A stretch of DNA of 59,505 nucleotides, filler included, from Jimgerdemannia flammicorona (lineage: Eukaryota): the NCBI GenBank assembly GCA_003990765.1. It is 2 parts of 2 records of this genome, joined end to end, with 100 filler letters (N's around TTAATTAATTAA, not from the genome) between each part and the next. Parts side by side here need not be neighbours in the genome. Positions count along the whole stretch, not along the records: positions 1 to 29,706 come from RBNJ01000474.1; 1 more part is not named here. One strand, 5' to 3'. The notes beneath the pieces were generated by a model. It made no database searches. It saw only the letters and a program-made list of their open reading frames with translations, and had not been told where the DNA came from. Positions 4,366-45,663 of this stretch are shown here, piece after piece. Both the position numbers and the translations under genes were made by a program. The stretch's first letter is position 1, and each line of letters opens with the position of its first letter.

Positions 4366-4369
<4 letters not shown>

Positions 4370-5813: not shown

Positions 5814-5876
5814 TTTGGAATATAGTAGCGGATGAGATGAGGGACTTGTGTTGTTGGGTGGTTCTTTAAGGCGCCC

Positions 5877-9284: not shown

Positions 9285-9516
9285 AAAATATAATTCAATA
9301 GTTGCTAAGATATAAAGCTAAATATAAATTTCAATAACTAAAACTACTAAGTTCCAGGGTCAGCACTGATGGTTGTACAGGTTCAGGATACTGGTATAAT
9401 TCAGTGTCACATCAGAATACTAGAACAATTTCGCATCACCTCAGAATACCAGTGCTAGCATTATTCGGTATTATATCAAAATACTGGTGCTGGTATTATT
9501 TAGTATAACAAAGAAC

Positions 9517-15900: not shown

Positions 15901-18710
15901 CCAACCCTCCCACAAAGCCCTATCCTCCAACAAGGAAGAATTTAGTTGCCAATATCCAGGCCCCTCCTCACTTCCCCCAAACCTCCTCCCTCCAAGCAGC
16001 CCTCAGTAATCAGACCACGGACACCAAACTACCTCCAGCACCTTCCAGACATCTGCTCCCCAGCACTCCACTATCAAAACCCAGTCAATTGTGGAGCCCA
16101 GCCCTACCGCCCAGTGGGTGTATACCCGCTGATTGTCCCAAAACTGTCTTCCCAAATCCACTAAAGAACTCAACCTCTCTGTCTCCAACCAGTCACCCAA
16201 CCCACCACTTTCACTCTACATGCCTCTCCCTCTATCTGTTCTATCCATCTTCTTATCCCATACCATATTGAAATCACCCCCTATGCAGTCCAACCCAACC
16301 TCTCCCAAGACATTGGCCTCTTTCAACCTGCAAATCCAATCCACTCTCTCCCCTCTCTCAGCTGGGCAGTAACAAGATCCAACTGTCAATGAGCCCCATC
16401 CAGGCCTCTTCCACACTCTCTACACCACCCAAGACTCCCAATGTCCAATGTCCCCAATGTCCCCCATCCCTTTCCAAATGAGAATATCCACTTTTCCCCT
16501 CCATACCACCACCCCCCCCCATTTCTTAGTCCAATCCTGTAAATCCATGTCTATCTCATAATGAATATTCTGTAATAAGAAGAGGTCTGCATCTAGTCCC
16601 TTAAGCCATCTAAATATATACTTCCTCTTAACTGCCCCCCATAACCCATTTACATTCAAGAGAATATCCTAGTTATACTATTCATATTGAAAGAATGTTG
16701 CAATAGAGACCCCAGTCTAGTATTCCATACTCATCTCATCTCCAGTCAGATCCAAATACTATTCAGCTTCAAAGTCACCCTCTGCATTAACCTGAGCATC
16801 TGGTGCCTCCAAGATTTCGTGACATTCCACCCCATCCACTACCTCCATCTCCAACTGGTAGTCCATGCAGACTGCATGCCACTTCTCCAGTCCCTTCCTC
16901 GAGTTCCACAAGTATAATACCCTGTCACTTGCAATTCTTCTAAGTTCCTCTTCTCTCTGATCAACTTGATATTCCACCAACTCCAGGAGAATAGCCAGGA
17001 TCTCGTTCCTCATCTTTCTCAGCACCTCCTCCTCCTGTAGGATCTCCTCCCAATGCCTCTCTTCCATAACCCTGAAATCCTCTCTCCCCAGCTCTTCTGC
17101 CACTATCCCTTCCAGAGTCTTCCACATCCACTTCTCCTCATCCACTGCCTTCGCTGCACCCTGAATGATTTGTCCCCCATCTACCTCAGGGTCCACCAGT
17201 ATACTCCTCCTCACTGACTCATCCCACTTCTCATCTGGCACATCCAGCAGCTCCTCCCCCCCCTCAGCTCCACCCAGGACACTATACTGAGGATATACAC
17301 CTTCGCTCATTTCTGCATCTGCCTCCATATTGCCTTTCCTCCCCTCCTCCACTCCAATCTGAGCCCCACCCCAGGCCCTGTTGCCCCTCTTAGTCTAGGC
17401 ACTCTCCTGCAATCCTACAACCCCCTCCCCTGAGCTTCCACTAGCTCCACCCCCACCCAATCTTGCCAGCAGCTCCTTCTGGATTTTCCTCCACTGCATC
17501 TTCTCCCAGGCCCCCCTCTCCATCTGGACCCTCTTCCCATCCACCTCCCCCACTACTGTCCTGGCCTCAAACTCCTTCCAGGCCAATCTCCTCCTTGCAA
17601 CTGCCCCTTCCAGATCCTCTAGAGCCTCCAACAAGTCTTCCTCCTCCTCCTGAGTCCCCTTCACCCTCATGACCTTGCACTCCACTGGTCCCCACCTCAG
17701 CATCGCTGGCCAGTCCCTCGACTTTCCTGTATTCTGCTTCCCAGCCAGCCTCACCCTGATATCAATGTCACCAGTCCAAAGCTCTGTACCCTCCCAGACC
17801 TTGAACCCAACATCCACAATCTCTCCATATACCTTGATCGCCTCTACAACCAACTCTCTGGTCCTCTCCTTTGACACTGTAGGGAGATCCACCACTATCA
17901 ACTGCACCACTCAGGGGTCCCAGTGTATGCACCTGGCCATAGGGACCACAACTCCACCAACTTGCACCCCTTTTCCAAGACTGCCAGCAAGGTGTCTTTC
18001 TCCTTGAACCCCACCTTGACTCCTTCCTTCCCCTTCAAAAACTTCACCGATGCTGCTCTCTTTGCCTCCTGCACCACCAGCCCCAGAATCATCCTTGCCA
18101 TCACTGCCAAGCCCCAGAAACAAATTGTGACTGCGAATTCTGACCTCAACTTCTTGAGTAACAGGGCTGACACTATGCCAGTCACCCCATCTGCCAGGTC
18201 CCCAGACCTCATGCCCACTCTCTGTTCTGAATATGCTGACCACTATCACATCTGGATTTTTTGCCAGATCCCCAGTCACAGCCCCATCAACCATCACAAC
18301 TCCAGCCCCTACTCTGGCTCCTCCCCTACTATCTGAAACTCTCCTGGACACACCTCCCTGTCCTCCATCATCAGCTGTCAATGCCTTCCCCAGGCCCAGC
18401 CATCCATCTAGACCAGAGGCCATCTTCTCCATTCTGACCTTGTCAGCAAAGGTTGACCTCTCCTCTCCTCTCTGCCTCAGACTGCCCCTCTCTCCACCAC
18501 CAGGGTCTCAGCTAGCCATCAAGGCCCCTGGCATCTCCAAACCATCTCTCCTCCTCCCCACCTGCTGCCAGCCAAAGGCACTGCCACCCCCCTGGCCAGT
18601 ATGCTCACCAGTTTGATCATTGCCATCCATGTCAATAGTCATCGACACCAAAAATATAGTAAAAAGTGTTGTCTGAGTCTTGTGTCACCCAAATGGTACT
18701 GGTGAAAGGT
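12944..18710 (-). mobile_element. Full-length L1/Tx1-like non-LTR retrotransposon (LINE-1), inserted in the A1 RT
   Basis: Poly(A) tail (T run at 12943-12959) and AATAAA. TSD CATTTTCCAAT at 12933-12943 and 18713-18723, with the empty site visible in A2 at ~40010. ORF1 ~18432-16759. ORF2 from 16685 has NVNGL, GGDFN, FADD and a C-terminal CxxC. Confidence 0.93.
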
Positions 18711-19384
18711 GCCATTTTCCAATCTTGTTGCTGAAGACTCTGTTCATCATTCACTGGAAACTGCTGGAGCATTGTACATTCCAAATGGCATTTGCAGGTA
18801 GATATAAGTGGCATCAGGTGTGATGAAGGCTAATTTCTCACTGGCATCTTGAGTGAGACCAATCTGATGGAAGCCTGAGAACAGATCCAAGGTGGTGTAG
18901 TATTTGGCTTTACTTCCAAGAGTGGTAAGGATTTCTTGAATATTTGGCAAGGGCTGTCTATCCTTCTTAGTGATAGTATTGAGCTTCCTGTAGTTGATGC
19001 AGAGTCTTGGTGCAAACTCTCCAGGCTTGCTTCCTTTCTTTGAGGTGAGGACAATGGGTGAAGCCCAGGGGCTGATAGCTTGCCGATGATCCTGGCTTCA
19101 CCCATTTTCTTGAATTCTGCTTGTAGCCACTCTCTGTAGGCAGGTGGTATGGGTCTGGCTTTCTGGTGGATGGGCTTGGTATCACCAGTGTCAACTTCAT
19201 AGTAGTACTTGTATTCTTGATTATAGATATCTCTGAAGTCTGTAGTAAGTACTCCTTCATTCTGGTACAAGATCTTGAGAAGTTGTTCCTCTAGGGGAAT
19301 GTTTTCTCCAATGATATATGTGTGCTTGTTCTGGTCCTTGTCTTTCTTGTGCTCAAGTTCAGTAATCTTGGTAGCAGTATAGGC

Positions 19385-19805
19385 TCCTCTTCCAGTAGAT
19401 CCAAAGCCTTGTTCTCCTTTCTTGATCTTGATGAGTTCAATGGCTTCAATGATCTTGGGCTTCTTGACTTCATGGATCAGCATCTGGCCAATTCTGTCAT
19501 GCTTCTTGACTTCAAAGGGGGTGGTGTGGTTGTGATTTCTGACTATAAGGAAGATCTTGCCAGTATAATCAGGGTTAATTACTCCTCCTTCAACTGAGAT
19601 TTCACTTTTGGCCAGACTGCTTCTGGTCTTGATGATTCCAGCATGGTTTTCTGGTAGCTTGACTCCAATTCCAGTGCCAAGTAGGGTGGTGGTCTGTGGT
19701 TCAAGGGTAGCATCTTGAATGCTGGCAAGATCCATTCCTATAGCTCCTTTAGTCTTGTATCCTGGGATCTTGGCTTTAGGGTAAAACTTCTTGACCTTGA
19801 GGGTG
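19385..19805 (-). pseudogene. Trimeric-type dUTPase domain of A1, between protease and RT
   Basis: MDLAS, KTRSSLA, GGVINPDYTG, DRIGQML, GEQGFGSTG (motifs 1-5). Confidence 0.92.
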
Positions 19806-20167
19806 ATGTCTGATTCTTGTTCCTCCTCATTATCACTGTCAGCCTGAAGCTCTGGGGGCTGGTCATCTTCTTCGGCTTTCCTTTTTGCTTTGGCAGCTTC
19901 TTGCTAATATTTCTGTTGGTGGATTTTCCTGACTTCACTGATACAGAACCAGCAGTCATTCAGGTGTTCAGAGCAGTACATCCTAGTACCATGGGGGCAT
20001 CTTCCTTGAGGGGCATGGCCATCAATGATCTTGTTGTACCACTGCTCATCTGTGAGCTTGAGTGTCTTGTTCTTGTTCTTATTCATCAAGTATATGAAGA
20101 TCTCTGTGTTCTCTTCATCTCCTTCCTCCATGTCTGGTAGAACTCCTTTGTGGACATTGATAGAGAC

Positions 20168-22016: not shown

Positions 22017-23421
22017 TGTCATGTAGTGGTCGCTGAGTCCTTCAAATATACCAGATTCTCTTCAAGATATATCTCTTAGACTAACTCAAGTTTGTTATAA
22101 GCAAGTTCTTATTGGAGTGTGCCTTCCCAAGGTCTTATAATCCTCAAACTTCTTATCTTTAACTGTCTTGTTATCTCTTAGATTGCTTGCAAGAAAGTGT
22201 GTATATTGTACTGAGAAGACTGACTTTATTTCAGAGGAAATAAGAGGGGTATTTATACAAAATATATTTCAATGGTTGCTAAGATATAAAGCTAAATATA
22301 AATTCTAATAACTAAAACTACTAAGTTCCAGAGTCAGCACTGATGGTTGTACAGGTTCAGGATGCTGGTATAATTCAGTTTCACATCAGAATACTGGTGC
22401 TGGAACAATTTCATATCACCTCAGAATACCAGTGCTGGCATTATTTGACATTACATCAAAATACTAGTGCTGGCATTATTCAGTGTAATAAAGAACTTAG
22501 AGAAGAAAGTTCAAGATCATAGGGGCTTCATCATCATCATTATTACTGAAGGAGATAAGATCCACAAATTCATCATTTTTGTATGCTTTGATGTCATGTG
22601 GGATGACATCATCACTGATGACATCATCACTGATGGTGGCGAGAAGGAGGTCTGGGGCTCTCCAGTCTATGAGGTTCTCTTCTACAAAATAGAGAACAAA
22701 TGTGGGGTCTTGGAGAGATCTAACCTAGATGCTTAGACCTTAGAATACTGAGATCAATCCTTGCAGGAATTGATCTGGGTTGTTCTGAAGGATAGGATAT
22801 CAGAAGTCTTTTACTTCATCACTATTGAGGGCGATAGTGGACTGGGCTTCTGTAGCCACCCTGGCTTCTAGTGCATTGATATAGTGAGATAACAGGTCTC
22901 TGAAATCTGAGACTCTAACATACTCCAAGTTGGAGATCGACCATGGTGCATGTCTGAAGATCTGATGGATCTTTTTAGCTGTCCTTGCCTCACATATATC
23001 TATGGGAGTGGCATCTTGTAGCTCTTGAGGGCTGGCCTGTGGAAACTCCCAGCAGAGGAGATTTTCTATTTCATACTCTTGCCACATTTGGAGGCATTCA
23101 GTAGTAATAGTGATCCTTGTTTCCATTTTACAGTAGTAGAGAATAAAGTGATAGGGATCTGCAGTACCCAGGTCAACACTAGGAGTCCTTCTTGAGCAGG
23201 TCCTTATAGCTCTTCTGATGTCTTAGAACATCCTTTCTTTGACTGAGGTACTTTGGTAGTTCCTTGACCTTGAGGTTTGGCAGACAGCAGGCATTTTGTT
23301 TGTAGTAAGTCTTTGAGCTATTTTGGGATTGGTGGGTCTTATTGGTTGCTGCTACTGCAGTTTCTTGATTCTTCTTTTATATTTCTCAAGATACTCATAC
23401 TGTGGTCACAATGACTCACAG
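22017..23421 (-). repeat. 5' LTR of A1 (truncated by LINE-2)
   Basis: Starts TGTCATGTAGTGG and is collinear with 9045-10422. Confidence 0.9.
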
Positions 23422-26400
23422 GGGCCAGGTGGTGGCTATTGGTGAGGACGAGCTGGTGGATGTCCCAGAAGAGGAGTGGAATGAGGATGCCAGTGTAGGT
23501 GCAGATACTACAATGCTGGATGCAGGGTGGCCAGGGACCCCTGGAGGGAAGAAGATTGGGAATCTGCTATGGATGAGCAAGGTGATGGATAACCTTGCAG
23601 CTGAGGTGTTGGGGGAAGTGGATCTGAGAGTCATGCTGGAGGAGCACTGGGCACAGATTCTGTGAGGTGAGGGAGTGGTGGAGGTGCTGAAGATGGAGAT
23701 TCTTACGATACTACTGGAGGAAGAGGGTTATGAGGTGGATGAGGTGAGGAAGGCGGAGCTAGTGGTTGTTGTGGGTGAGCAGGCGGCCTACTGTTGGGCA
23801 GAACGCCATAGTTTGCAGTTCTGGCAGGAGGCCTGTGGGGAGTATCAGGAGGACTTTGAGGAGAAAGAGGATGGAGCAATGGTTGAACTTCTGGAGAGAT
23901 TGGAGGCACAGGGAGCTGAGAAGAAGGAACTGGCTGCAGAACATATCTTGGATTTGGCACAGGAGGACTTGAGTGTGGATTTGTAGAGAAGAGGTTTAAT
24001 CTTTAACAATATTCCTCATGAACAGTACAACTAACATTTTCTCTCTCAATGTGAATAGTCTTCAAGGATCTGGGCAGTGTAGAATATTTTTACATGGCTA
24101 AAGAGATTGGAGGCTGATCTCTTTTTACTGCAGAATGTACAGTGTGTGGATGAGGATGATCAGGTCGAATGGACTAGAGAATGGGGTGGGGCTACCACTT
24201 GGTTTGGAAAGGTGGCAATTCTGATAAAGAAGGGTAGAGGAGATTTGGAGGGGATCTAGAACTAGGAAGATTGATTGGTCTGGGGTGAATGGCACCAGCC
24301 AGGGTAGGAATCAGTAAGGGTGGGCTCATATTACTTCCCAGTGGCGAGGGGAGAGAGAATTGCATGGATTAAGGAGCTACTGGAGGAGGGCATCCTCTTG
24401 GAGGAAGGGGTTGATGTTCTTGGTGGTGATTTTAACATGGTTCGAGATTTGCAGTTGGATAGGACTGATGGAGAGAGAAATGCCAGTGGAAGGAGTGGCA
24501 GTCTAGATACATAGGAGGAGGTGGAAAACCTTAGCTTCTTAGGAAATATGGGCCGAATATGGTGGAGCGACATCAGGGTCTACACGTACTGGGTGAATGG
24601 CTTAGGAATAAGGATTGACTGGATTCTGACAGCTGAATGTTGGGGTGCAGATGTCTGGAAGACTTTGGAGGTGGTGTGGTGCCCATGGTCTGATCACTGG
24701 GGACTGATTGGGCAAGGGCAGTTTGGGGGGAGTGGAGATGGACCCAGACATTGGCATCTTAACTCCTCCCTGCTGGCCAAGAAGGGGTTGTGGGACTCAT
24801 GGGTGGAGGACATACAGGCAAAGATTCCACTTTAGAGGCAGGAGGGTTTATTTGTGGGTATTCATTGGTTGAGATTGAAGGAGGCTGCAAGGGTTTATTG
24901 GGGTGGAGCTGGTAGAGAGACAGGGAGAAGGAGGAGGAGGCGAATACAGTATGCCTCAAATAGGCTGAGGAGATTGCAGTTAGAGTGGGCAGATTTGCTT
25001 GCATCTGATGAGGTAGAGGATTAGAGGTTAGAGAGGGCAAAATTGGAAGTTGTAGAACTGCAACAGGTGTTGTGAGAGGAGGAGGAGACTCATATGTGAG
25101 GAATGGCAGCCAGGCTTAGATGGTAGGGGCTTGTGGAGGGGGAGCAGCCTACTAGGTACTTGTCTAGGCTCCTCAAAGCCAGGCAGGTGAGGCATAGGTG
25201 GGATGGGATCTTGGATGCTGAGGGAGAGTTGGTGCATAGCACACAGCAGATCCTGGGAGTATTGAAGGAGAATTGGTGGGGTCTGTGGAGTGAGGAAGAA
25301 GGGGGTACTGATGCAGAGGCGATTGGTGACACACTGGAGGAGTGGGAGCTGCCACAGGTAGAGGGGCTGACTGACTTGATCTTACCAGTCCAGGAGGAGG
25401 AGATACAAGGTGTCCTGGTAGCGACTAAGCTTGGGATGGCACCAGGAGAGGATGGGTTACCATGGGACTTCTGGAAGAAGATGGTGAAAGTCCCAGAGAT
25501 GCTGGGAGAGATGGTGGCCCTCTGTGACTATGTTCTTCTAAATGGCATGTGGGTTGGTGAGCAGGAATTGGGACTGGTTGCCCTATTGTACAAAGATAAG
25601 GGCCAGCATGAGGATTGGAAGAACTGGAGGCCAATCATGCTTCTGGATATAGATCGGAAGTTGGTGACTAAGGTGATTATTGCAAGTGCAAGGCTACAGA
25701 AGGTTGCTCAACAGGTGCTGGGGGAGGAGCAGCGGGGCTTTGTAGGTGGTAGACTTATCAGAGATGGAACTGCCTGGGTGCATGGCATTATTGAAGGAGC
25801 CTGGGCCTGTGGACTGGATGGGAGACTGGTTTTTTTGGACCAGGAGAAGGCCTACGACCATGTTTAGTGGGTTTGGTTTGGCAAGGTACTGGACAGAATT
25901 GGCATTCCGCCACAGTTTCAGGCCTCTATGTTGAGTTTGTTGAAAGGGAGTAGAGCAGCGCTAATGTGTAATAGTCACAGGGGTTTGGCATTCCCCTTGG
26001 GAAGAGGAGTCCCTCAAGAGGACCCACTGTCCCCTATCCTTTATGCACTCTCCTTGGAACCTTTGATGGACAGGATCTGTAAGAGAGTGACTGGGCTCTC
26101 TGTGTATAACATGGAGTGGAAGGTGGGGGCCTTTGCAGATGATATAGTAGTTGGACTTGGATCAGTAGCAGATGTAGAGGCTCTTCAGGAAACAGTGGAG
26201 TGGTATGAGGCACACTCTGGAGTGAAGCTCAACTGGCATAAGTGTGAGACAATGGTGCTGGGGAATGGACTGGTGGGAGGGGATGTCATTGAAATAATTG
26301 TTTCCACAGGAGAGGTGGTGTGGTACCTAGGTATCTTCCTCTCTGTATATGGATCAGTCCTACCACAGATATGGTGGGAGAGGAGGGTGGACATTTGGGG

Positions 26401-26888
26401 AGAGGCTCTAAAAGGTTGGGGGGGTTGTCACATCTCCCTGGCAGGGAGGGTGGCAATTCTGAATATATACTGGTTCCCCAAGCTGTGGTATGTGGCATAT
26501 CACTTAGACTTTCCCACTTGGGTGGTGAAGAGGCTGATGAAACTGGCTAGGAATTGAATTTGGGCTGATAGAAGGGCCCAGATCAGTTGGGATACCCTTG
26601 TCGAGCCAGTGCTTAGGGGAGGCCTGGGCCTGGTTGATTTCTCTAAGTGTCTACACTGTCTGCAAGCTTGGTGGTTGAGAAGGGCTGTTGATCTACAGAG
26701 TGGAGGTTGGGTGCCATTGATGAAGAAGGTGTGGGAGATGAGAGTCTCTCCCTGGGGGTCCACAGGAGATCTACTCTCTTTGGTGGGTCTGAATGGAAGC
26801 CGACAGCTATGGTATAAGGGCTTCTGGTGGGAAGTGGTCGAGGGGGTACACTGGATAGGCCTATGCTGGCATGGCAATGAGGGGGAGG

Positions 26889-28947
26889 TGTAAGAGGGTT
26901 GCTTTTTAGGGTAACCATTACATAGTTCTGGAAGGGTTTTCTGGAAGTTCTGGATATTCTGGAAGACTGTTTTCTTATGGTTAAGATCAATCTCATATGG
27001 AGTACGTCCTCTATGCTTATTGATTTCAAGATCAGGTTGACGTCTCAACCAAAGTCCTTTTTTGGACTAGTTCTGGATGTTTGGGATTTTCCGTATTTCA
27101 GGAAGTTCAAGAAACTAAGACCAGCTTAGTTGAATTGGCATATCACTGCAGACAATACCCAATTAGGAAATTTCGTGACAGAGTTAGGAGTGGGACCTAA
27201 CAGGGAGTGGGTTTACTTAAGAGTGGGTTGTGGGTTATCAAATAGATTTATTTGCTATTCATGATATTGCTATACTAGGAGTAGTTGTGTGAAGAGATGT
27301 TGTGGGGAAGTATTCAGGAATGTTCTTGTGTGTTCGAGTCTGAGATTCTGAGGTCTGGAGGAGGGGGTATTTATACTAGTGAGGGGCTATCTGGACTATG
27401 CTAGATATGGATATAGCACTAAGTGCCTTGCTGAGTCAGAATGCAGTCACATAGTACAGGTGTGATCTGACATATCAAGAGATTGTCTGACTGCTGAGTC
27501 AGTTCACAGTTACGTCGTACAAGCTAATCTAACTATACTATGACTGCTAGGCTATTTATGAGTTTAGGTACTGTCTGGGTAGTCTTCAATGACATCACCA
27601 TCAATAACATCATCTCTGATAAAGTAGTCATCTAGGAAGAGTGGTTTGCAGATTACTTCTCCTTGTTCGCTGAGGTAGTAATACATTGGGACTTCGTCTC
27701 CATCCCACAGGATAGCGTCGTCTGTCTCGTAGGCTGGATAAGGTGTTGGTGGGCGAAGGATGAGTGTATTGTCTTTGCTTTCATTGGATTCACTGTCTGC
27801 ATACCTTCTATAGGTTATAGCACTATGAGTTGCAGGATTGTAGTAAGCTGGCAGCTGTGGTTCATGTTGCTCGTACAGGTGGTGGAGTGGTTGGTTCAAT
27901 CTCGAGGGTTGTCTGAAGGTACAGGTTATATTCTCCAGTCTCTTCATTGTAGTTGAAGTAATCAGGGGTGAATGTAGGTTGGTATTCATGCCAGTGATCA
28001 TTGTCCCAATAAGTCTCGTATGCAGTTATGAACTGTTGTAAGTTCATCAGCAAGGTTGGTGGCATGATCAGGGTTGGCAGAGATCCTTGGCTTGAGCTCA
28101 TGTCGGCATCAGAGGGATCATTGTCTTCTGCTTCATCTTCGTCAAAATGGATTATATCATAGATGTCCTTCATAGTATATCTGACTTGAGGCATTTGCAG
28201 GATATAGTCATCAGGGTGCGGGAAGCTTCTGTCTGTGGTCTGGACATATTCGAGGTACTTGTGGTTGAGTTCTTATATCATGTCATCGATTTGGCCATAG
28301 GACAGGGTGGTAACCATTTCGCTGGTAGTGACTCGGAGGCAGGGAATAAAGGTATTGTACTTATAGAAGAGTTCTCGATGTTTGCAGGCGATGAGCTTCT
28401 GGTGTTGAGACATCTGGGTAATGTCTGTATCATGGTGGTGTTCGACCATGTCTTCCAAGAGGCAGCTGATCTGGTAGTAGCTTGAGATTTGTCCGATTCG
28501 GTGGGCCTCACTAAGCATGTTCAGGGCATTCCATCGGGCTTCCACGAAGTAGAGGGGTGCCAGGCTATGGATATTCATAAGGGGCAGAGGGGGTGTGGCT
28601 CGGTTGACAATGGCATTCCAAATGTCAGCATGGATACAGTTGTATATCTCAGTGATCATATTTGTGTATTTGGAAGTTATGGTTGTTATTTGTTTTGGTT
28701 CTCTGATTTGATGCGTCTCGGTGCTCAGTATATATGCATTTGGTCCTGATTGGTAAGATTCCATTTATGTAAATCTTGTGTTCCATGACTTCATATTGAC
28801 TCAGCTTTGTGTACTGTGACTTCGGTTTGACTCAGCTTCGTGATTAAGCAGGTAATTTCCAGATTTGTTCAGAGGTCACATGTAATTTCGGTGGCTTGTT
28901 CAGAGGGTGACGTGTAATTTTGGTGGCTTGGAGGTTGTGCGCTTACA
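26889..28947 (-). mobile_element. Solo LTR of family B (2059 bp)
   Basis: TGTAAG...CTTACA termini, a perfect 5-bp TSD GGAGG (26884-26888, 28948-28952), and homology to 49731-51802 and 58722 onward. Confidence 0.95.
27564..28764 (-). pseudogene. LTR-B U3-embedded ORF (~400 codons reconstructed), unknown function
   Basis: ORFs 28273-28764 and 27862-28194 are in one frame. The shift into 27564-28001 is repaired by 2 extra nt in the 49731 LTR copy (~50728). Confidence 0.65.
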
Positions 28948-29706
28948 GGAGGTAGTATGGGGTCCAGCTATGTGGCAATGGGACTGTCTGCTTCTAGGGG
29001 GAGTTCCACTCGCTGAGTTTGATATTGGAGATGTAGTGGAGTATCAGCGGTGAATTGGCCAGGATCTTTGGCCAAGTAGTTGGCAGGTGGTGGAGATTGG
29101 TGAAGAGTGGGACAGGGCAGGGATCTGGTCTTGGAGTATGGAGGTACGGCAGTGGCTTCCTCCCAAGTTCTGGGTAGTGTGGTGGTAAATGTTGCAGAGG
29201 AATGTTATATTGAACTTCCATGCTAGGCATCTGGTGGATGGTGGTCAGCTGGATTGTGAGGAGTGTGCAAGTTGGGGGTTTTGTACAAATGCCGGAACAT
29301 TGGCTGGGGGAGTGTGAGGTTCTGGGAGACTTTTGGATAGCTGTAGGAGACCGACTTGGGGTTGAAAGGAGACTGGATGAAGAGAGAGGTTGCTGGGAAG
29401 ATCTGGAATCTAGACTTGTAGGAGGTGTCGGTAATAGGTGGCTTACTGTAGGGTGGGTTGTGGCAGTGTGGGTGGGGTTGGCTGGACATTGGCTCTTTAT
29501 TTTTGAGGAGGGGTGATAAATAGGGATACGGGAGGAGTTATTGAGATGGGAGGAGTTGGTGGTAGATTTGCTGACAGGGTGGTGGGTTGGATGGGGACCG
29601 CAAGGTAGGCAATGTCACTGTCTGGTGGAAGGGATTTGTGAGCAGAGTGGTGGGCAGGTGGAGATGGTGTTTGATAAGGTGGTCTTTCGTCGAGAAGGGG
29701 TAGGGG

Positions 29707-29806
29707 NNNNNNNNNNNNNNNNNNNNNNNNNNNNNNNNNNNNNNNNNNNNTTAATTAATTAANNNNNNNNNNNNNNNNNNNNNNNNNNNNNNNNNNNNNN
29801 NNNNNN
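29707..29806. other. Artificial contig linker (44 N + TTAATTAATTAA + 44 N)
   Basis: Exactly 100 nt, symmetric, with stop codons in all six frames. Confidence 0.95.
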
Positions 29807-30958
29807 TAACTATATAATTAAAGATATAATTAATACTATTTTTAAATTTTAGATTTATATTTTAGTATTAATTAATATAGAGTTTTTAATAAGTTTATAA
29901 ATTATAAGAATTTTTTTAATCTTAAATTATATACTTAATATTTATAATTATAAGAAGTAATTTATATATAAAATTACTAATATATATATAATATAAAGTT
30001 AGTATTTTTAAATTTTTTTTTTTCTTAACTTTAAAATATAATAATATAATAAAAATATATCTAAATTTATTATTTTTATTATATTAAATTTATTTTAATA
30101 AATTAAATTCAATAAATTTAATTTGATTAAATTTATTAAAAGTATTAATAAAAATATTATATATATTGTCACATAGTAGTCACTGAGTCCTTCAAATATA
30201 TCAGATTCTCTTCAAGATATATCTCTTAGACTAACTCAAGTTTGTTATAAGTAAGTTCTTATTAGAGTACCTTCCTAAGGTCTTATAGTCCTCAAACTTC
30301 TTATCTTTAAACTATCTTGTTATCTCTTAGATTACTTACAAGGAAGTATGTATATTATACTAAGAGAAACTAACTTTATTTCAGAGGAAATAAGAGAGAT
30401 ATTTATAAAAAATATAATTCAATAGTTGCTAAGATATAAAGCTAAATATAAATTCTAATAACTAAAATAAAATGCCAGGACAGGAAAAACTACTAAGTTC
30501 CAGAGTTGGCACTGATAGTTATATAGGTTCAGAATGCTGGTATAATTCAGTATCATATCAGAATACTAGTGCTGGCATTATTTAGTATTATATCAAAATG
30601 CCAGTACTGAAACAATTCTATATTACCTCAGAATACCAGTACTGGTATTATTCAGTATAACCAAGGGACTTAGAACAGAATGTTCAAGATCATAAAACTT
30701 CATCATCAGAGGTCAGAATGTCTTCAAAGGAGATGAGGTCTACAAATTTATCATTGTCATGTATTTTGTATATATCACATGAGATGATATTATCACCAAT
30801 AACATCATCACATTTAGTGGCAGAGAAATTGGGGGCTCTCTAATCTATAAGGTTCTCTTCCACAAAATAGGGAACAAATGTGGGGTCTTAGAGAGGTCTA
30901 ATCTGGATGCTTGAGTCTCAGAATACTGAGATCAATCTTTACAGAAATTGATCTGAGT

Positions 30959-33900
30959 CAATCACCTTTCACTAGTAATATTCAGGTGACACAAGACTTA
31001 GACAACACTTTTGACAATGTTTTTGGTGAAAGGCGACTAGCAACATAGAGAGCAATGACTATATAGGTATACATACTAGGTCAGGTGGATCTCGGGCCTT
31101 TGACTGGCAGCAGGTGGGAAGGGGTTATGGTCTGGGGATGGGGGCTTTTGGTAGACCGAAGAATGGAGAAGGCTCTGGAGGGGGACTGGTGTCCAGTGGC
31201 TATGGGGGAAGATCTGGTCTCCCAAGCTTTGCCGACAAGGTTAAGGAGAGTGGGTGGCCAGCTGGTAACAGGGCTGGTACTGCTGAGGGGAAAGGCAAGG
31301 TGAGCCTTGGGAGGGGGGGCAGTGCTCTGACTGGGAGTGTAGGTGTAGGGGCTGGAGGTGCTGTGGCTGGGGGTATGGCTGTTGATGGGAGTGTGATGGG
31401 GAATCAGGAAAAAAAAAGAGATGTAATGGCTGATGGCCAGGGGGGCAGGGGTTCCCAATGTGGAAGGGGGACCTGGCGGATGGTGTAACAGGGCTGACAG
31501 TGACCCTATTGCTCAAGAAGTCAATCTCAGAGTTTGCAGTGACCTTGTGCTTCCAGGGCTTGGCAGTGATGGCAAAGATGGTTCTGGGGCTTGTCTTGAA
31601 GCAGGTGGCTGAGGCAGCCTCAGTGAAGTTCTTGAAGGGTCTGGAGGGAGTCAAGGTGGAATTTGAGGAGGCCGGTCCATTGGATGAGGTGCTGAAGACT
31701 GGAGTTATAGTTGGGGAGATGGTGGTCCCCATGGTGCAGTGCTTGCAATGGGACTCCAGAGTGGTATAGCTTCTGGTGAAGGGGGTGCCCACAGTGACCA
31801 AGGAGGAGACTAGGAAGAGAGTGGAGGAGGTGATGATTGAGTATGGTGATGTGGTAGACATCAGCTTTCAAGTGTAAGAGGGGATGACAATCAGGATGGG
31901 TGATGTGGATGTCAGGATTTGGCTGGCAGGGAAGGAGGCTACAGGGAAGACAAGTGACTGGCCTTCTATGCTGATGTGGGGGTATTTGTCTGTAAGGTGT
32001 CGAGAGTGAAGGGGAGTGAGGAGGAGGAGGAGGACTTGTTGGAGGTACTAGAGAAGATGAGTGGAGCTGTGGAGAGGAGGGCAAGGGCCTAGAGGATGTA
32101 TGAGGAGTCGACACATCTGGAGGTTATAGAGGGGAAGCAAATCCACATGGACAAGGGGCAGTGGGAGAGGGTACAGGGGCACAGGAGGCAGAGGGAGCTA
32201 CTGACAAGTATGATAGTCGAGGTAAAGGAGAAGGCAGTTGGGGCTGAGGTATCTGGGGGCATCAAGGCCAGTGTCTGGGCTAGTAAAGGGGTAGGGGAGG
32301 TGAAGGTGGGCAAGGAAGAAGATGGGAAGGTGCTGAGCAAGGACCCCTTTGCTGATGGCACCCTCAAGGTCTGGGAGCTGGAATTGGATTCCACCCCCCC
32401 TCCTCTGATCAGGAGGGGCCCGGCTGCGAAGAGAAGGGCATCAGAGGATGTGCTGATGGAGGGGGCCCAGCGAGTGCATTTTGGGGTCTCTGATGTGGCA
32501 AAAGGGGGCCAGGTAGTGGTGGCTGGTGAGGATGAGCTAGTGGATGTCCCTGAGAAGGAGTGGGATGAGGCTATCAGTGTGGGTGCTGATACCATGATGT
32601 TGGATGCGGGACAGCCAGGGACTCCTGGAGGAAAGGAGGTAGGAAACTTGCTATGGATGAGCAAGGTGATGGATAACCTCATGGCAGATGCATTGGGAGA
32701 AGTGGATCTGCGGGTTATGCCTGAGGAGTACTGGGAGAGGATTCTACATGGTGAGGGAGTAGTGGAGGTGCTGAAGGGGGAGATTCTTGCAGTCCTCTTA
32801 AAGGAGGAGGGATATGAGGTCGATGAGGTGAGGAAGGCAGAGCTGGTAGTGGCTGCAGGTGAGCAGGCAATATACTGCTGGGCTGAGCGGCATAGTCTGC
32901 AGCTCTGGAGGGAGGCCTGTCTGGAGTATCGTGAGGAATTTGAGGAGAGAGAAGATGAGGTAATGGTAGAACTCCTGGGAGGATTGGAGGTATGGGAGGC
33001 TGGGGAAAGGGAATTAGCTGCTGAACGTAAATTGAACTTGGTGCAGGAGGAGCTGAATGTGGACTTATAGAGGATGGGATCACTTTCGAACATTATTCCT
33101 TATGAATAGTACAACTAACTTTTCTCTTTGAATGTAAATAGGCTGAGGGGATCTGGATAGCATAAGAACATTTTTACTTGGCTCAAAGGATTGGAGGCTG
33201 ATCTATTTTTACTATAGAATGTGCAGTGTGAGGATGAGGATGATCGGGCGAAGTGGACTCAGGAATGGGGCAGGGCTTCTGCTTGGTTTGAAAAAGTGGC
33301 GATTCTGGTGAGGAAGGATAGAGGTGACTTGGAGGGAATCAAGAGCTGGGGTGACTGTTTGGTCTGGGGTAATTGGCAGCGGCCAGGGTGGGAGTTAGTG
33401 AGGGTTGGCTCTTACTACTGCCCTGTGGTTAGAGGTGAGAGGATTGCTTGGATTAGGGAGCTGCTGGAGGAGGGTGTTCTCTTGGCAGAAGGGGTTAATG
33501 TGATTGAGGGGAACTTTAATATGGTTCAGGATTGGCATCTGGACCACACTGATGGTGGGAAGAGTGCAGGAGAGAGAAGTGGAGGCCTGGACACATGGGA
33601 GGAGGTGGAGAGGTTGAGCTCCTTCAGGAATATGGGTAGAACACGATGGGGTGACTCCAGGGTCTATATACATTGGGTGAATGGCTTGGGTACAAGGATT
33701 GACTGGATTCTGATGGCAGAATGCTGGGGGTCTGATGTCTGGAAGAGATTGGAGGTGGAATGGTGCCCATGGTCTGATCATTGGGGGCTGTTGGGACAGG
33801 GGCAGTTTGGGGGGGGTGGAGATGGACCCAGACATTGGCACCTCAACTCCTCCCTACTAGCTGAGAAGGGGTTGTGGGATTCATGGGTTGTGGACATTCA

Positions 33901-36815
33901 GGTGAAAGTTTCTCGTTGGTGGTGTGAGGGTTTGTCAGTGGGTGTCCGGTAGATGAGATTGAAGGAGGCTGTGAGGGTCTATTGGGGTGAGGCTGGGAGA
34001 GAAGCTGGGAGAAGAAGGAGGAAGCGCATGAGGTGTACTTCTAGCAGGCTGAGGAGATTGCAGATAGATTGGGGTGATTTGCTTACTTCTGATGGGGTGG
34101 AGGATTGGAGGTTAGAGCGGATTAGATTGGAGGTGTGGGAACTGCAACAGGTGCTGAGAGATGAGGAGGAGGTGTATATGCAGGGTATGGCTGCTAGGCT
34201 TCGGTGGCAGAGGCTTGAGGAGGGTGAGCGGCCTTCTAGATATTTATCCTGTCTGCTCAATGCTAGGAGGGTGAGACAGTGGTGGGATGGAGTCCTTGAT
34301 GCCAATAGGGACATAGTGCATGGCATACAATGAATCCTAGGGGTTTTGAAAGAGAGATGGCAGGGTTTGTGGAGTGAGGATGAAGGGGGTGCTGATGTGG
34401 TGGCTATTGAAGAGACATTAGGAGAATGGTGGCTGCCACAAGTGGCTGGACTGGGTGACTTGGCCTTGTCAGTGCGAGGTGAGAAAGTCCAGAGTATCCT
34501 TGCAGCAACTTAAACTGGAACAGCACCAGGGGAGGATGGACTACTATGGGACTTTTGAAAGAAGATGGTCAAGGTCTCTGGCATTCTGGGGGAGATGACT
34601 GCTCTTTGTGATAATGTTCTTCAGAATGGTGAATGGGTTGGGGAGCAGGACCTCAGGCTAGTGGCTTTATTATACAAAGACAAGGGGAGGAGAGAAGACT
34701 GGAAGAACTGGCGGCTGATCATGCTTTTGGACATGAACAGGAAGATGGTGACTAAGGTGATTGTCGCAAGGCTGCAGAAGGTTGCCCAACAGGTGCTGAG
34801 GGAGGAGCAGCAGGGCTTTGTTGGAGGAAGACTTATTAGAGATGGGACTGCTTGGGTGTATGGTGTCATTGAAGGGGTCCGGGCTTGTGGTCTGGATGGG
34901 AGGTTGGTCTTTTTGGATCAGAAGAAGGCCTATGATCAGGTCCGGCAGGTTTGACTGGGCAAGGTGCTGGATCATATTAGTGTTCCTCCTGGATTTCAGG
35001 CTTCTATGGTAAATCTGCTCAAGGGCAGTTGGGCAGCACTATTGTGTAATGGTCACCATGGTCAGGCATTTACCTTGGGAAGAGGGGTTCCTCAGGGAGA
35101 CCCCTTGTTACCTATCCTTTATACTCTCTCATTGAAACTGTTAATAGATAGAATTTGTTAGAAGGTGGCGGGGCTCTCTATCTATGGCATAGTGTGGAAG
35201 GTGGGGGCCTTTACAGATGATATAGTGGTTGGCCTTGGGTCTATGGCAGATGTCAAGGCACTTCAGGAGACAGTGGAATAGTATGAGATTCACTCTGAGG
35301 TGAAGCTCAACTGGCATAAGTGTGAGACTATAGTGCTAGGGAATGGGCTGGTGGGTGGGAATGTCATTGGAACAATTGTCCCTACTGGTGAGGTGGTATG
35401 GTATCTGGGCATCTTTCTCTCTGTATATGGTTCTGTCTTGCCATGAGTATGGTGGGAGAGCAGGGTGGCTATTTGGGGGGAGACCCTTCGAGGTTGGGGA
35501 GGCCATCATATCTCTCTAGTAGGGCAGGTATCGATTCTGAATACATACTAGTTTCCCAAGCTGTGGTATGTGGCATATCACCTAGACTTCCCAGCTTGGG
35601 TGGTGAAGAGGCTGATGAAGGTGGCTAAGGATTGGATTTGGGTAGAGAGGAGGTCCCAGGTCAGTTGGGATGCTCTTGCAATGCTGGTGGACAGGGGAGG
35701 TCTTGGCCTTGTGGATTTCCCTAAGAGATTGCACTGCTTGTGAGCCTGGTGGCTGAAGAGAGTGGCTGAACTACAGGGAGGGGGTTGGGTCCTTCTGATA
35801 CAGAAGGTGTGGGAGATGAGAACCTCCCCCCGAGGGTCCTCGGGAGATCTAATCTCTTTAGTGGGGCTCAATGGAATTCGGCGGCTGAGATTTAAGAGCT
35901 TCTGGTGGGGAGTGGTCGATGGAGTACACCAAATTAGTCTGTGCTGGCAAGGTAATGAGGGGGAGGTATTGTGGGGTCCTCATATGTAGCGATGGGATAG
36001 ACTGCTTCTGGGGGGTGCTCCACTTGTTACTTTTGACATTGGGGATGGAGTGAAGTGTCAGCAGGGTCTTGGCCAAGACCTTTGGCCAAGTGGTTGGCAG
36101 ATAGTCGGAATTGGTGAGGAGTGGGACTGGGCTGGTGTCTGGTCTTGGAGTACTGAGGTACAGTGGTAGCTTCCCCCCAAGTTCTGGGTGGTATGCTGTG
36201 GAGGAATGTCATGCTGAATTTCTATACCAGGCATCTAGTGGATGGTAGCTGTTTTGATTGTGAGGAGTGTTACAATATAGGGCAAGTTGGGGGTTTGGTG
36301 TAGATGCCAGAACATTGGCTGGGGGAGTGTGAGGTTTTGGGGGACTTTTGGGTTGAAATAGAAAATATATTGGGTGTAGAGCACAGGCCAGCGGGTGAAG
36401 GGGATCACTGAGAGGCCTTGAGATCTTGGCTGATGGGTGGGGTGGGTGATAGTTGGCTCACTGTTGGGTGGGTATTAGCAATTTGGGTGGGTCTGGTGGG
36501 ACATTGGCTATTTGTGTTTGAGGAGGGGTGGCAGATGAGCCTGCAGGAGAAGATTGTAAGGTGGGAGGAGCTGTTGGGGGATCTGTTGACGGGATGGTGG
36601 GTAGGTTGGAGTCCCTCAGGGGGGTGGTGGTGTGGTTTGGTGGCAAGGATATGCGAATAGAGTGGTAGAAGAGTGGGAATTGTATTTGATAGAGTGGTGT
36701 TTCATCGAGAAGGGGTAGGGAGAAGAGGCCTCCCTAGGGGGATTGGTTAGGGGGTGGGTTTAATGTATTTATATAGATTAGATGGGTGTAATAAAAGATG
36801 AGTCCAAGTGACTAT

Positions 36816-36841
<26 letters not shown>
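30959..36841 (+). mobile_element. Full-length L1/Tx1-like LINE (LINE-3), inserted in the A2 3' LTR
   Basis: TSD TTGATCTGAGT (30948-30958, 36842-36852), AATAAA at ~36790 and poly(A) at 36816-36840. The 5' end ACCTTTCACTAG...GACACAAGAC matches the LINE-1 5' end. ORF1 ends at 33070; ORF2 runs 33102-~36750. Confidence 0.95.
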
Positions 36842-36846
<5 letters not shown>

Positions 36847-39800
36847 CTGAGTTGTTCTGAAGAATAGAATGCTAGAAGTCTTCTACTTCATCACTATTGA
36901 GGGTGATAGTGGACTGGACTTCTGTGGCTACCCTGACTTCTAGTATATTGATATGGTGGGATGACAGGTCTCTGAAATCTGAGACTCTAATATACTCCAA
37001 GTTGGAGATCGATCATAGTGTATGCCTGAAGATCTGATAAATCTTCTTAGCTGTCCTTATTTCATATATATCTATAGGAGTGGCATCTTGTAGCTCTTGA
37101 GGGCTGACCTGTGGAAACTCCCAGCAGAGGAGATTTTCTATTTCATACTTCTGCTATATTTGGAGGTATTTGGTAGTAATGGTGATCCTTGTTTCCATTT
37201 CATGACAGTAGAGGATATAGTGATAAGGGTCACCAGTATCCAGATTGACACTAGGAGTTCTTCTTGAGTGGGTTCTCGTGGCTCTTCTGATATCTTAGAA
37301 CATCCTCTCTTCAACTGAGATATCTTGGTGGTTCCTTGACCTTGAGGTTTGATAAGTAGCAGGCATTTTGTTTGTGGTAAGTCTTTGAGCTATTTTGGGG
37401 TTTGGTGGGTCTTATTGGTTACTACTACTGTAGTTCTTTGATCCTTCTTTTATGTTTCTCAAGATACTATACTATGGTTACAATGACTCACAGTTGGTCA
37501 TCATTGCTCATCTTGTATGCCATATAATCTTCTTGTGCTCCAATCTGGTGGCTTGTAAGGAAAGACTGTCTCCTATGCTGATGTTATCATTCTGGGGTCA
37601 CCATTACATCTTCCTTCTGAATAAGGATCTTCTCGAGCATCCTTATTCATTGGTCTAGTCCTAAAAAATTTACTGATCCCATAATCTCTGGCAAGGGGTC
37701 AAAAAGTGGTGTTTATAGACTAGTGTCTTCTCTTTATATTTTGGCATGATGGTGGAGGGTCACTCTCTTCATATAGAACAAGAGTCTGATTCTGATCTTG
37801 ACCAATCAGTTGACAGTTCAAACTCCTCTGGCTTCAAAAGTCTCATAGATGAGTAGTTGCTAGTACCATATCTCTTAGAGAATAGTCCAGACAAATAGCC
37901 TGCTGGTCACAGGACATGCTGTTATAATTTGCAGACTAGAACCTTGCAGGTGGTCATTACATTTTACTTCTCTTATATAGATTCATGGTACTTCTTGAGT
38001 CTATTCTTATGTATCATAGTAGGCAGTATAGTCTCTGAGATTTTTCTAAGCCAGAAGGTAGTTTTCTTGATATCTTGCACATACATAAAAGAGTTCTTCC
38101 CATTTGGGTTTCAGTTTTTATAACCATGAGGCTTCTACTATATTTTGATATAGTAGGACTTTTTTTTCAATTTGGATGAGTTCTAGGGTCTTGGGATTCT
38201 TTTCTATATTCTTCTTTATCAGTGCTTATGACTTGATGATATAATCTTCAGCCTTCTTCCTGATTTTATGTAGTCTCCAGATTTCTGCATCAACCTATCT
38301 CTAGGTTAAGTCTAGATTTATGGCTGAGGTTTCATCAGAATCTTCTTTCCCAAAAAGCAGTTTCCTTGGGGTAAAGTGTGTGCACTATGACTATATATCT
38401 TGTAGAATAGAGGGAGCAGTTGGGAGATAGTTATCCCAATTCCCATATGTCTCTAAGATCTTTGCCAGGATGTTCTTGAGGGTCTTGTTGGTTCTCTCTG
38501 TCTGTCCATTTCCTTGAGGGTGGTATATGGTGGTCTTGATGTGCTGGATCTTGTATTTCTGATATATTATCTTATGGAATCTATTGACAAATTCTGTATT
38601 ATGGTCTGTTGTGATTTGCTTCAGTGTCTTGTAGTGGCAGATGATTTCTTGGTGCAGGAAGTTAGCTATAGAGAGAACATTGACTTCTTGTAATACTCCT
38701 GCCTCTATTTATTTGGTGAAGAGGTCTACAATAACTATAATATAGCAGTTTCCTGATAGTGTTACTGATAGTAACCCAATGATATCTATTGCAATGTGGT
38801 GGAAGGGGATAGGCTCAATTCTTGATGACTCAGGTACCTAGTCTTGCTGATCTTGTTTCTGTTTTTGGCACTTATCACACTCTTTAATAAATTGGTACAG
38901 GTCTTCTTCTATCTTGGGCCACCACATAGTTCTTCTTGCCTTATCATATGTATGTATTGGTTCCTCCTAAATGTCCTTACTCATATACTTTCTTCATTAC
39001 TTAATACTTCTTATATTTGGATATTACTAGCTTTTCTCCTTTTCTGAGTATAGTATTGTCTAGTTCAAACTATTTCCAAGTCTAGTTAATGATGGTGATT
39101 GTTCAGGGTTTGAGGTAGTTGGGCATCTTCCACTGTCTAAGATAGCTGATTAATCCATAGTATAGCTCCTTATTCATATTAAATAGTCTTGATGGGGGTG
39201 TTTCAGAGTGTTCTTGAGAGTGCATCAGCATTGGTATTGGTTCTTCCTAAGCAGTACTTAATAGTACAGCCATACTCTTGCAGTCTGTAGATCTATCTGA
39301 CATATATTTCTTTGGGGTTCAGAGTGTAGAATAGTCAGGCAAGAGCAGAATGGTCTGTTTGAATGATGAAGTATTTCTCAGCTAAGTAGTAGTGAAACTT
39401 GTCTACTGTCCAAACTACTGCTAAGCATTCAAGCTTGCATGACTCATAGTTCTATTCTACTCCACAAGTACCTTGGCTTACATAGGAGATGATATATTCA
39501 TATCCATCTTTCTTCTGAGCTAGGACTGCTCTAAGTCCTATAGCACTCGCATCTGTCTGCAGGATAAATTCTATGTTCCAATCTGATCTTCTGAGGATAG
39601 GTGCTTAGGTCAATCTGGTCTTGAGTTTATTGAAGGTTTCTTGGTACTCTTTGGTCTATTTGAATTTAGTTTTCTTCTTCAGTAGCTTATAGATAGGTAC
39701 TGCAATGTTGGAATATCCTTTAGTAAATCTTCTGTAGTAGCTGGTCAGTCCAAGGAAGGCATGGACTTCTGTGGTTATTCTGGGTCTTGGGTAGGCTGCA

Positions 39801-44114: not shown

Positions 44115-45663
44115 TATCACATAGTGGTCACTGAGTCCTTTAAATATACCAGATTCTCTTCAAGATATATCTCTTAGACTAACTTAAGTTTGTTATAAGT
44201 AAGTTCTTATTAGAGTGCCTTTCTAAGGTCTTATAGTTCTTAAACTTCTTATCTTTAAACTGTCTTGTTATCTCTTAGATTGCTTGCAAGAAAGTGTGTG
44301 TATTATACTGAGAGGAACTGACTTTATTTCAGAGGAAATAAGAGAGATATTTATACAAAATATAATTCAATGGTTGCTAAGATATAAAGCTAAATATAAA
44401 TTCCAATAACTAAAATAAAATGCCAGAACAGGAAAAACTGCTAAGTTCCAGGGTCAGCACTGATGGTTGTATAGGTTCAGAATACTGGTATAATTCAGTA
44501 TCATATCAGAATACTAGTGCTGGTATTATTCAGTATTACATCAAAATGCCAGTGCTAGAACAATTCCATGTCACCTCAGAATGCCAGTGCTGGTATTATT
44601 CAGTATAACCAAGGGACTTAGAACAGAATGTTTAAGACCATAAGAACTTTATTATTAGAGATCAGAATGTTTTTGAAGGAGATAAGATCTGTGAATTCAT
44701 CATTGTTGTACGTTTCACATATGTTGCACAGGATGACATCATCACCAATGATGTCATCATATTTGGTGGTAGAGAAATTGGGGGCTCTTCAATCTATGAG
44801 GTTCTCTTTCACAAAATAAAGAATAAATGTGAGATCTTGGGGAGATCTAACCTAGATGCTTGGACCTTAGAATACTGAGATCAATTCTTACTGGAATTGA
44901 TCTGAGTTGTCCTGGAGAATGAGATGCCAGAAGTCTTCTACTTCATCACTATTGAGGATAATAGTGGACTGGACTTCTGTGGCCATCCTGACTTCTAGTA
45001 CATTGATATGGCAGAATGACAGATCTCTGAAATCTGAGACTCTAACATACTCCAAGTTGGAGATTGACCATAGTACATGTCTGAAGATCTGATGGATCTT
45101 CTTAGCTGTCTTTGTTTCATATATATTTATGAGAGTGGCATCTTGTAGCTCTTGAGAGCTGGTCTGTGGAAACTCCTAGCAGAGAATATTTCCTATTTCA
45201 TACTCCTACCACATTTGGAGGTATTTGGTAGCAATAGTGATCCTTATTTCCATTTCACAGCAGTAGAGGATATAGTGATAAGGGTTACCAGTACCCAGGT
45301 TGATACTAGGAGTTCTTCTTGAGTAGGTCCTTATAGCTCTTCTGATGTCTTGGAACATCCTCTCTTCAACTGAGATACCTTAGTGATTCCTTGATCTTGA
45401 GGTTTGGCAAGCAGTAGGTATTTTGTTTATAGTAAGTCTTTGAGCTATTTTGGAATTTGGTGGGTCTTATTGGTTGTTGCTACTGTGGTTCCTTGATTCT
45501 TCTTTTATATTTCTCAAGATACTATACTGTGGTCACAATGACTCACAGTTGGTCATCATTGCTCATCTTATATACTGTATAATCTTCTTGTACTCCAATC
45601 TGATGGCTTGCAAGGAAAGACTGTCTTCTATGCTGATGTCATTATTCTGGGGTCACTATTATA
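44115..45663 (-). repeat. 5' LTR of A2
   Basis: Decayed TG...CA termini; shares a ~22-bp insertion (TAAAATGCCAG...) with the 30167 LTR that the A1 LTRs lack. Confidence 0.9.

Follow-up and report, generated by a model that had tools for sequence, protein, structure and literature searches.

Evidence for a formerly coding frame inside the U3 region of a chromovirus long terminal repeat in the fungus Jimgerdemannia flammicorona

The stretch of Jimgerdemannia flammicorona DNA analyzed here (59,505 nt from assembly GCA_003990765.1, hereafter the window, along whose whole length all positions are counted) opens with two host genes, behind which retroelements are nested, and it holds three copies of a long terminal repeat (LTR), named family B, whose U3 region seems to have carried a protein-coding frame of about 410 codons. 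The family B LTRs and the LTR frames described below are all on the minus strand, which is their sense strand. Copy A (26889-28947), delimited by its boundaries and by alignment to copy B, is 2059 nt long and has the ends TGTAAG...CTTACA. It is a solo LTR of a Ty3/Gypsy chromovirus, since the target-site duplication GGAGG is found in the flanking sequence on both its left (26884-26888) and its right (28948-28952), and since it splits the tail of an open reading frame (ORF) resembling those of long interspersed nuclear elements (LINEs), an uninterrupted paralogue of which represents the empty site at 13639-14292; residues 1-157 of this paralogue align to 26417-26887 and residues 160-216 to 28958-29128.

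Copies B and C both belong to a single family B element, full-length but decayed, and form its two LTRs. Copy B, the 3′ LTR, was placed at 49731-51802 by alignment, and copy C, the 5′ LTR (58722-59473), is partial, includes the last ~30 frame codons alone, and ends at a run of 32 T. This run (59474-59505, plus strand) ends the window, cutting the 5′ LTR within the last codons of the U3 frame, and may stem from the poly(A) tail of a further insertion or from the edge of the assembly. Between the two LTRs lies a decayed gag-pol (52246-56385, minus strand), detected by Pfam on read-through translations with X at the stops and with coordinates taken from residue ranges, whose order is CCHC knuckle, dUTPase, protease, reverse transcriptase (RT), RNase H, integrase (H2C2, core, and SH3), and chromodomain. 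The matches include RVP_2 (2.3e-11), RVT_1 (2.9e-27), RT_RNaseH (1.5e-28), Integrase_H2C2 (3.2e-15), SH3_Tf2-1 (6.1e-13), and a dUTPase between the CCHC knuckle and the protease (6.6e-26; 55855-56235, minus strand), while the Chromo match (7e-05, 23.1 bits) is slightly below the Pfam cut-off of 25.1. About 440 nt separate the end of the chromodomain (near 52246) from the 3′ LTR (51802), which is abutted by the polypurine tract AAAGCTAAGAAGGGGAGAG (51804-51822, minus strand), whereas the primer-binding site TGGTAGCAGTGA (58707-58718, minus strand), named by its position and with no tRNA matched to it, stands 3 nt (ACT) behind the 5′ LTR. Owing to this set and order of internal domains, the polypurine tract, the primer-binding site, and the LTR ends, family B is a Ty3/Gypsy chromovirus with a dUTPase. 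Its LTRs were compared among the copies in the window and among public copies, namely assembled contigs of the runs X1, X5, X15, and X19 aligned to the LTR and counted by contig depth. The junction of LTR, ACT, and primer-binding site is also found in a public X5 contig, which has its loose end at 26891.

The U3 frame (27564-28794, minus strand, ~410 codons) runs from an ATG at 28794-28792, common to copies A and B, to a TAA at 27566-27564. It begins 153 nt into the LTR and stops 190 nt before the TATA box TATAAATA (27368-27375, minus strand), the presumed LTR promoter, which lies downstream of the frame and is kept in copies B and C. An earlier reading, made without database searches (the sequence-only reading), had described a sense frame wholly within the LTR and upstream of the TATA box, and these positions bear it out. 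Ahead of the ATG, a TGA at 28803-28801, also common to both copies, closes the frame 144-146 nt into the LTR, so that its origin as a run-on of pol is ruled out. The frame is found in both window copies that cover the region, and X1 and X5 contigs cover all 30 bins.

In copy A, the frame is broken at three places, the second and third of which separate three open minus-strand pieces of 163, 136, and ~100 codons. The first break is a private TAA (28765-28767, minus strand) at codon 10 of the longer frame, which hides the ATG at 28794 and is CAA in copy B; public depth for CAA at this site is 619.6 of 660.1 in X1, 32.7 of 34.7 in X5, and 83.5 of 83.5 in X19. The second is the in-frame TAA at 28273-28275 (minus strand), which is also CAA in copy B and where the sense-strand C at 28275 is carried by a depth of 2121.2 of 2577.9 in X1, 65.6 of 67.6 in X5, 22.5 of 22.5 in X15, and 2.3 of 4.7 in X19. 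The third is a 2-nt deletion (27877-27878, minus strand), after which the frame shifts, and whose longer form is present in copy B, in the database protein P0003 described below, and in other contigs, with a depth of 25.5 of 28.6 in X5, 368.7 of 368.7 in X15 (one contig), and 8.17 of 231.5 in X1, where seven further contigs end at this site with the letters of the longer form. The sequence-only reading had put a frame of about 400 codons here, with one stop and a 2-nt deletion that the other LTR repairs. The frame is real and both repairs stand, but the ATG that it took as the start, at 28764, is ACA in copy B, the likely start being 10 codons upstream, at 28794, and it had missed the second private TAA, at 28767-28765. 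The copy B homologue of the frame (50416-51649, minus strand), located by alignment, carries 9 premature stops together with two indels, one a 1-nt deletion and the other a 2-nt insertion.

Of the ~2059 sites that can be aligned between copies A and B, 301 differ, with transitions accounting for 277 of the differences. By sequence context, 74-76% of CpG, 27-34% of CpA, and ~30% of TpG sites are hit in one or the other copy, a pattern that is cytosine deamination of dead copies, affecting CpG first and then CpA/TpG. Each of the 9 premature stops in copy B is a sense codon in copy A, and 7 of them differ from A by C>T or G>A alone, with codons 206 and 300 carrying a further change. When deamination is undone, by choosing C over T and G over A wherever the two copies differ, the frame has 0 internal stops in 400 codons and retains the same terminal TAA, whereas, treated likewise, the five remaining frames of this stretch still contain 5-27 stops, and the 689 nt of LTR that follow have 7-24 in each frame. 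The reconstructed frame thus contains no stop, and its three indels are each confined to one copy, so that the refuting case set out in the sequence-only reading, a consensus with stops or indels beyond what deamination explains, did not arise. Outside the frame, the LTR has a stop about every 20 codons in every frame.

The sense strand of copy A is poor in G (328 of 2059 nt), which lowers the frequency of TAG and TGA, and other skewed repeats in the window also hold several frames of at least 130 codons, as would be expected if the U3 frame were a product of chance without biological meaning. Such an origin is, however, most improbable, being contradicted by three lines of evidence. None of 1000 dinucleotide shuffles gave an open run beyond 231 codons (mean 107), compared with the 400 observed. 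Codon-usage odds, from a model built on the open gag-pol pieces of the other element family of the window (family A), amount to +0.151 bit/codon here, compared with -0.44 and -0.57 for the two alternative frames and with values from -0.36 to -0.66 for the part of the LTR that follows the frame. Finally, the diverged relative P0003 is open in the same frame. The C+G content of the frame by codon position is 216/146/221. Taken as sequence evidence, the case that the U3 frame is real and formerly coding is solid.

A search of 1.84 billion protein representatives returned two relatives, P0003 and P0004, each alone in its cluster, and the same two came from three word-indexed searches of 5.8 billion proteins (1 of 115, 1 of 6, and self only among 81 candidates). 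P0004, a "hypothetical protein" of 128 aa from a contig of 1180 nt, is 89% identical to codons 36-163 of the frame as delimited in the sequence-only reading, and its C-terminus falls exactly at the TAA of 28273-28275. P0003 (247 aa, from a contig of 998 nt) spans codons 150-399, has the same C-terminal end as the frame, and matches the de-deaminated version at 167 of 246 residues (68%); 37 of the 79 differences cannot be explained without a transversion or two or more changes, and the alignment has two gaps of 2 residues each, both in-frame, and no stop. In neutral simulations run to the divergence of P0003 under three mutation spectra, the frame remained free of stops in 9, 21, and 1 per 1000 runs. 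Moreover, identity to P0003 is clumped, the observed variance being reached in 49 of 5000 permutations, and it is high in the blocks FTPDYFNYNE, PPTPYPAY, and YFIRDDVID. The openness of P0003 and the clumping of its identity speak with moderate force for constraint at the sequence level. That the element had in this frame an accessory gene under selection is, in our judgement, about as likely as not.

No genomic locus could be attached to these relatives in the metagenome data searched. None was found for P0001 or P0003 in metagenome contigs of the Joint Genome Institute (JGI); IMG/VR gave nothing for P0003 and one candidate relative, without a locus, for P0004. Three scans of IMG/VR with back-translated motifs gave 0, 2, and 8 loci, and tblastn of four proteins against those 10 loci found an 18-residue chance match alone.

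The product of the frame would probably have helices in its N-terminal part and, behind this, a long acidic tail, probably disordered, in which aromatic-acidic blocks are conserved. Its C-terminal 220 residues have an isoelectric point of 4.05, with 46 Asp and Glu, 9 Lys and Arg, 30 aromatic residues, and 22 Pro. An acidic composition rich in aromatic residues and Pro, as found here, also occurs in many activation domains and adaptor tails. The sequence-only reading had proposed a helical N-terminus and acidic/Pro-rich tails; the composition of the tail agrees with this, whereas the helices are seen in low-confidence models alone. In the PDB, the best match of the frame was SKA1, at an E-value of 0.24, which was set aside as chance. 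ESM Atlas returned no usable feature match for P0003 (template modeling scores of at most 0.30), and its matches to P0004, Closterovirus coat protein among others, scored 0.93 with at most 155 of 256 features in common and were likewise rejected as chance.

While family B was active, its 2.06-kb LTR would thus have carried a gene for a protein of ~410 codons wholly inside U3, putatively an accessory gene of the element; cytosine deamination and small private indels have broken the frame in the window copies, which are now dead. Since U3 is transcribed solely as the 3′ end of the genomic RNA, a U3 frame needs a messenger of its own, which could be a subgenomic (spliced) RNA or could start from a promoter located within the 5′ end of U3 or shortly before it. 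This messenger would end at the AATAAA of the LTR itself (27247-27252, minus strand), a presumed poly(A) signal that lies 312 nt behind the frame stop and is kept in copy B, the border of U3 and R being presumed ~30 nt beyond TATAAATA. Shortly before the ATG, a duplicated AAGCTGAGTCAA block contains two TGAGTCA motifs (28834-28828 and 28803-28797; 28797-28834, minus strand), and the interval from the frame stop to the TATA box contains two TGACTCA motifs (27501-27495 and 27438-27432; 27432-27501, minus strand). Both pairs are kept in copy B, so that the four TGA(C/G)TCA motifs hold the same LTR positions in copies A and B despite a divergence of 15%. We take these motifs to be putative sites for basic leucine zipper (bZIP) proteins of the AP-1/Gcn4 type. 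Through contacts with other proteins, the product would serve a regulatory role, for instance by activating the LTR or by antagonizing silencing, and any LTR, solo copies included, would then be a potential copy of the gene. The proposal of the sequence-only reading that the gene spreads by solo LTRs does not hold as a mechanism, as a solo LTR is a remnant of recombination and does not transpose.

The summed contig depth of X15, which, like X19, we take by guess only to be an RNA run, is 3900-4690 over 27096-27302 (presumed R-U5) and 0-380 over the frame. It is not evidence on expression, because contig depth cannot rank the parts of a gene.

Several observations weigh against a selected accessory gene. 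The ATG lies just 3 nt behind the second TGAGTCA, so that a promoter placed wholly within the first 153 nt would be cramped and is doubtful. The structural models are of low confidence: AlphaFold2 gives helices at residues 23-176 with a mean predicted local distance difference test (pLDDT) score of 35.9, or 47.4 for the N-terminal part alone, and the ESM Atlas model of P0003 has a pLDDT of 0.39. Pfam recognized no family in the three frame pieces at E-values up to 1, PDB sequences offered no relative, and the protein searches offered just P0003 and P0004, in their single-member clusters. P0003, which is listed in a database because it is open, may be a survivor among thousands of copies in soil data (3700 X1 contigs align to the LTR). 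The TAA allele at 28275, where P0004 also stops, makes up ~18% of X1 depth, which could mean that a CpA site was hit repeatedly or that a subfamily already carrying the stop spread. Synonymous changes account for 0.44 of the deamination-type differences between A and B, against 0.38 expected from sequence context (p = 0.08), in a comparison dominated by decay, with 87 differences at third codon positions against 72.7 expected; per-context mutation rates in the frame equal or exceed those elsewhere in the LTR. Moreover, copies B and C started out identical, as the LTRs of one element, yet 80 of 738 sites now separate them, and at 46 sites A is unlike either, so that all the divergence between A and B can be post-insertion decay. 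For this reason, the ratio of nonsynonymous to synonymous substitution rates (dN/dS), which the sequence-only reading had suggested computing and which was run on A against B, is uninformative between window copies. As to its broader claim of a coding feature in U3, the ancestral frame of the family was indeed of coding type, and it has a diverged relative that is open.

Many of these points would also fit a young, unselected frame, which entered U3 by capture or was born de novo shortly before the burst of the family and was of no use to the element, the open state of the reconstruction then reflecting youth instead of function. Such a frame would not be conserved beyond the rest of the LTR, would show no significant rise in the share of synonymous changes, and would diverge between A and B by decay alone; the failure of the searches made to find a family, a fold, or a wider homologue, and the TAA allele carried by P0004 and by some of the public copies, also agree with it. 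However, P0003 has diverged by 32% at the protein level, with 37 of 79 differences beyond deamination, and is nonetheless open with in-frame gaps alone, a degree of openness reached in 0.1-2% of the neutral simulations; conservation is also clumped, and codon usage is element-like in this frame alone. A young frame without function is, on this evidence, a tentative alternative, possible but rather unlikely.

An orphan fungal gene, in part or whole, could instead have been picked up into U3, in which case P0003 would be the host gene or its orthologue. LTR elements are indeed known to capture ORFs (PMC7264820 and PMC5408684, in the text available from each), and the short contigs from which P0003 and P0004 come have no visible genomic context. 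This transduction is nevertheless improbable, as the codon usage of the frame fits the element genes of the window (+0.151 bit/codon) better than its single long host gene (-0.367), the 1.84 billion representatives hold no homologue beyond two fragments, and transduced ORFs sit in one or a few copies (PMC7264820, available text), against thousands of contigs here. Furthermore, an X15 contig of 9601 nt with a piece of the frame (27755-28090) at one end, 81.5% identical, has a high depth, like that of a repeat or an abundant RNA.

The window contains a second dUTPase-bearing chromovirus, family A, with LTRs at ~22017-23420, 9054-10422, and 44124-45547, and with its dUTPase (ORF 18830-19903, minus strand) between the gag zinc knuckle and the protease, as in family B. 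The two families are 31-37% identical in pol, and their LTRs cannot be aligned. The 5′ part of the family A LTR also holds a sense frame (22497-23351, and also 9517-10352 and 44618-45479, minus strand), which has 285 codons and 4 stops in the copy at 23351-22497 and which, with three copies de-deaminated, is open for 283 codons, compared with at most 181 in 500 shuffles. No homology of the A and B frames was detectable, since their local score was matched by 355 of 500 shuffles; for the C-terminal 75 residues, the scores were matched by 174 and 129 of 2000 shuffles. A motif I(S/R)DDVIxxDVI near the C-terminus of both frames and a 32-nt blastn match of 81% give a weak hint of a relation. Another family A LTR, at 30166-30958 and 36726-37424, is apparently split by a LINE-like insertion of ~5.8 kb, as judged from repeat coordinates alone.

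Put speculatively, and with less than an even prospect of being right, the U3 of fungal dUTPase chromoviruses could be a slot for genes owned by the element, in which each LTR, whether 5′, 3′, or solo, would be a gene copy with its own poly(A) signal. The family B product might then be a trans-acting regulator, either an acidic activator working with the four TGA(C/G)TCA sites or an antagonist of methylation-linked silencing, in a fungal counterpart of the arrangement of sag/naf in mouse mammary tumor virus (MMTV) or tas in foamy viruses.

The remaining contents of the window comprise host genes and LINE-like elements. A protein kinase-like host gene, whose several exons have a long A/T run in between, stands at the window start (590-2559, minus strand) and a host frame of 351 codons, with a Cys-rich CNCQRDGCGELDIAE block at its end, at 4875-5930 (minus strand); the GC content of these host genes is 49-60%, compared with 30-40% in the AT-rich stretches of decayed repeats. 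LINE-like elements occupy 13000-18700 (C-rich on the plus strand) and 23350-29700 and 31000-36700 (both G-rich on the plus strand), have the RT motifs FADD and LSPILYALSLEPL, and show an absolute GC skew of 0.3-0.55 over kilobases, their sense strand being rich in G and poor in C. Near the LINE host of the solo LTR, two runs of 44 N each (29707-29750 and 29763-29806), with 12 bases between them and an AT-rich stretch adjoining, were read as assembly gaps.

Among known systems, the U3 of MMTV holds the sag/naf ORF and its U3 promoter drives expression in B cells, according to the available text of PMC9412291, which upholds the precedent for a U3-encoded protein named in the sequence-only reading. 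Like sag/naf, the family B frame is a long sense ORF that U3 contains in full, ahead of the main promoter of the LTR, and it is carried by each LTR copy of the window that covers the region; family B, like MMTV, encodes a dUTPase. Family B differs from MMTV in its fungal host and in being a chromovirus that lacks env, and the frame shows no sequence similarity to sag (no Pfam family at E-values up to 1 and no relative among PDB sequences). Sag is a membrane protein, whereas the family B product would be acidic and probably mostly disordered, with no sign of a membrane anchor. The nef gene of human immunodeficiency virus (HIV) and the bel/tas genes of foamy viruses are 3′ accessory frames that use U3 sequence, and foamy Tas is a transactivator of the LTR. 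The role proposed for the family B product would be of this transactivator kind; however, the nef and bel/tas frames start upstream of the LTR and merely overlap it, and have no sequence relation to the family B frame.

In plants, the additional ORFs (aORFs) of LTR retrotransposons lie between pol and the 3′ LTR (PMC7264820, available text). The family B frame resembles these aORFs, which are env-like in sense orientation or antisense as in Grande, RIRE2, and Retand and are found in most copies of a family, in being an extra frame beside gag-pol; unlike them, it is inside the LTR, where a TGA closes it on the upstream side. The text of that paper nowhere uses the phrases "in the LTR", "within the LTR", or "inside the LTR". 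In fungi, chromoviruses with a dUTPase are known from basidiomycetes and Tuber, as the available text of PMC2864245 reports, and family B shares with the elements of Postia placenta (PosPlaTy3), Phanerochaete chrysosporium, and Tuber melanosporum the combination of a fungal chromodomain Gypsy element and a dUTPase. A figure legend for fungal chromoviruses names an "additional ORF with unknown function", whose place the available text does not state, and that text describes no LTR-internal ORF for elements of the PosPlaTy3 type. By title and abstract, no LTR-internal ORF of a fungal retrotransposon was found in a literature that was mostly open-access, with subscription journals uncovered, and MMTV was the sole case of an LTR containing an ORF found in the open literature, which is not proof of absence elsewhere. 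What appears to be new here is a sag-type U3 gene in a fungal chromovirus, U3 genes as such being known from MMTV.

Fungal LTR retrotransposons are usually viewed as gag-pol machines whose LTRs are purely regulatory. If the frame was unselected, it serves as a caution that a frame of 400 codons can survive in the founder of a repeat and recur in thousands of copies. With two unrelated frames in two families of one genome, the window is in addition a test case for the origin of accessory genes in retroelements. If a U3 gene was indeed maintained, fungal elements would have accessory functions like those of complex retroviruses, solo LTRs, so far counted as inert scars or enhancers, could be gene copies, and annotation pipelines that mask LTRs would be hiding a class of lineage-restricted proteins.

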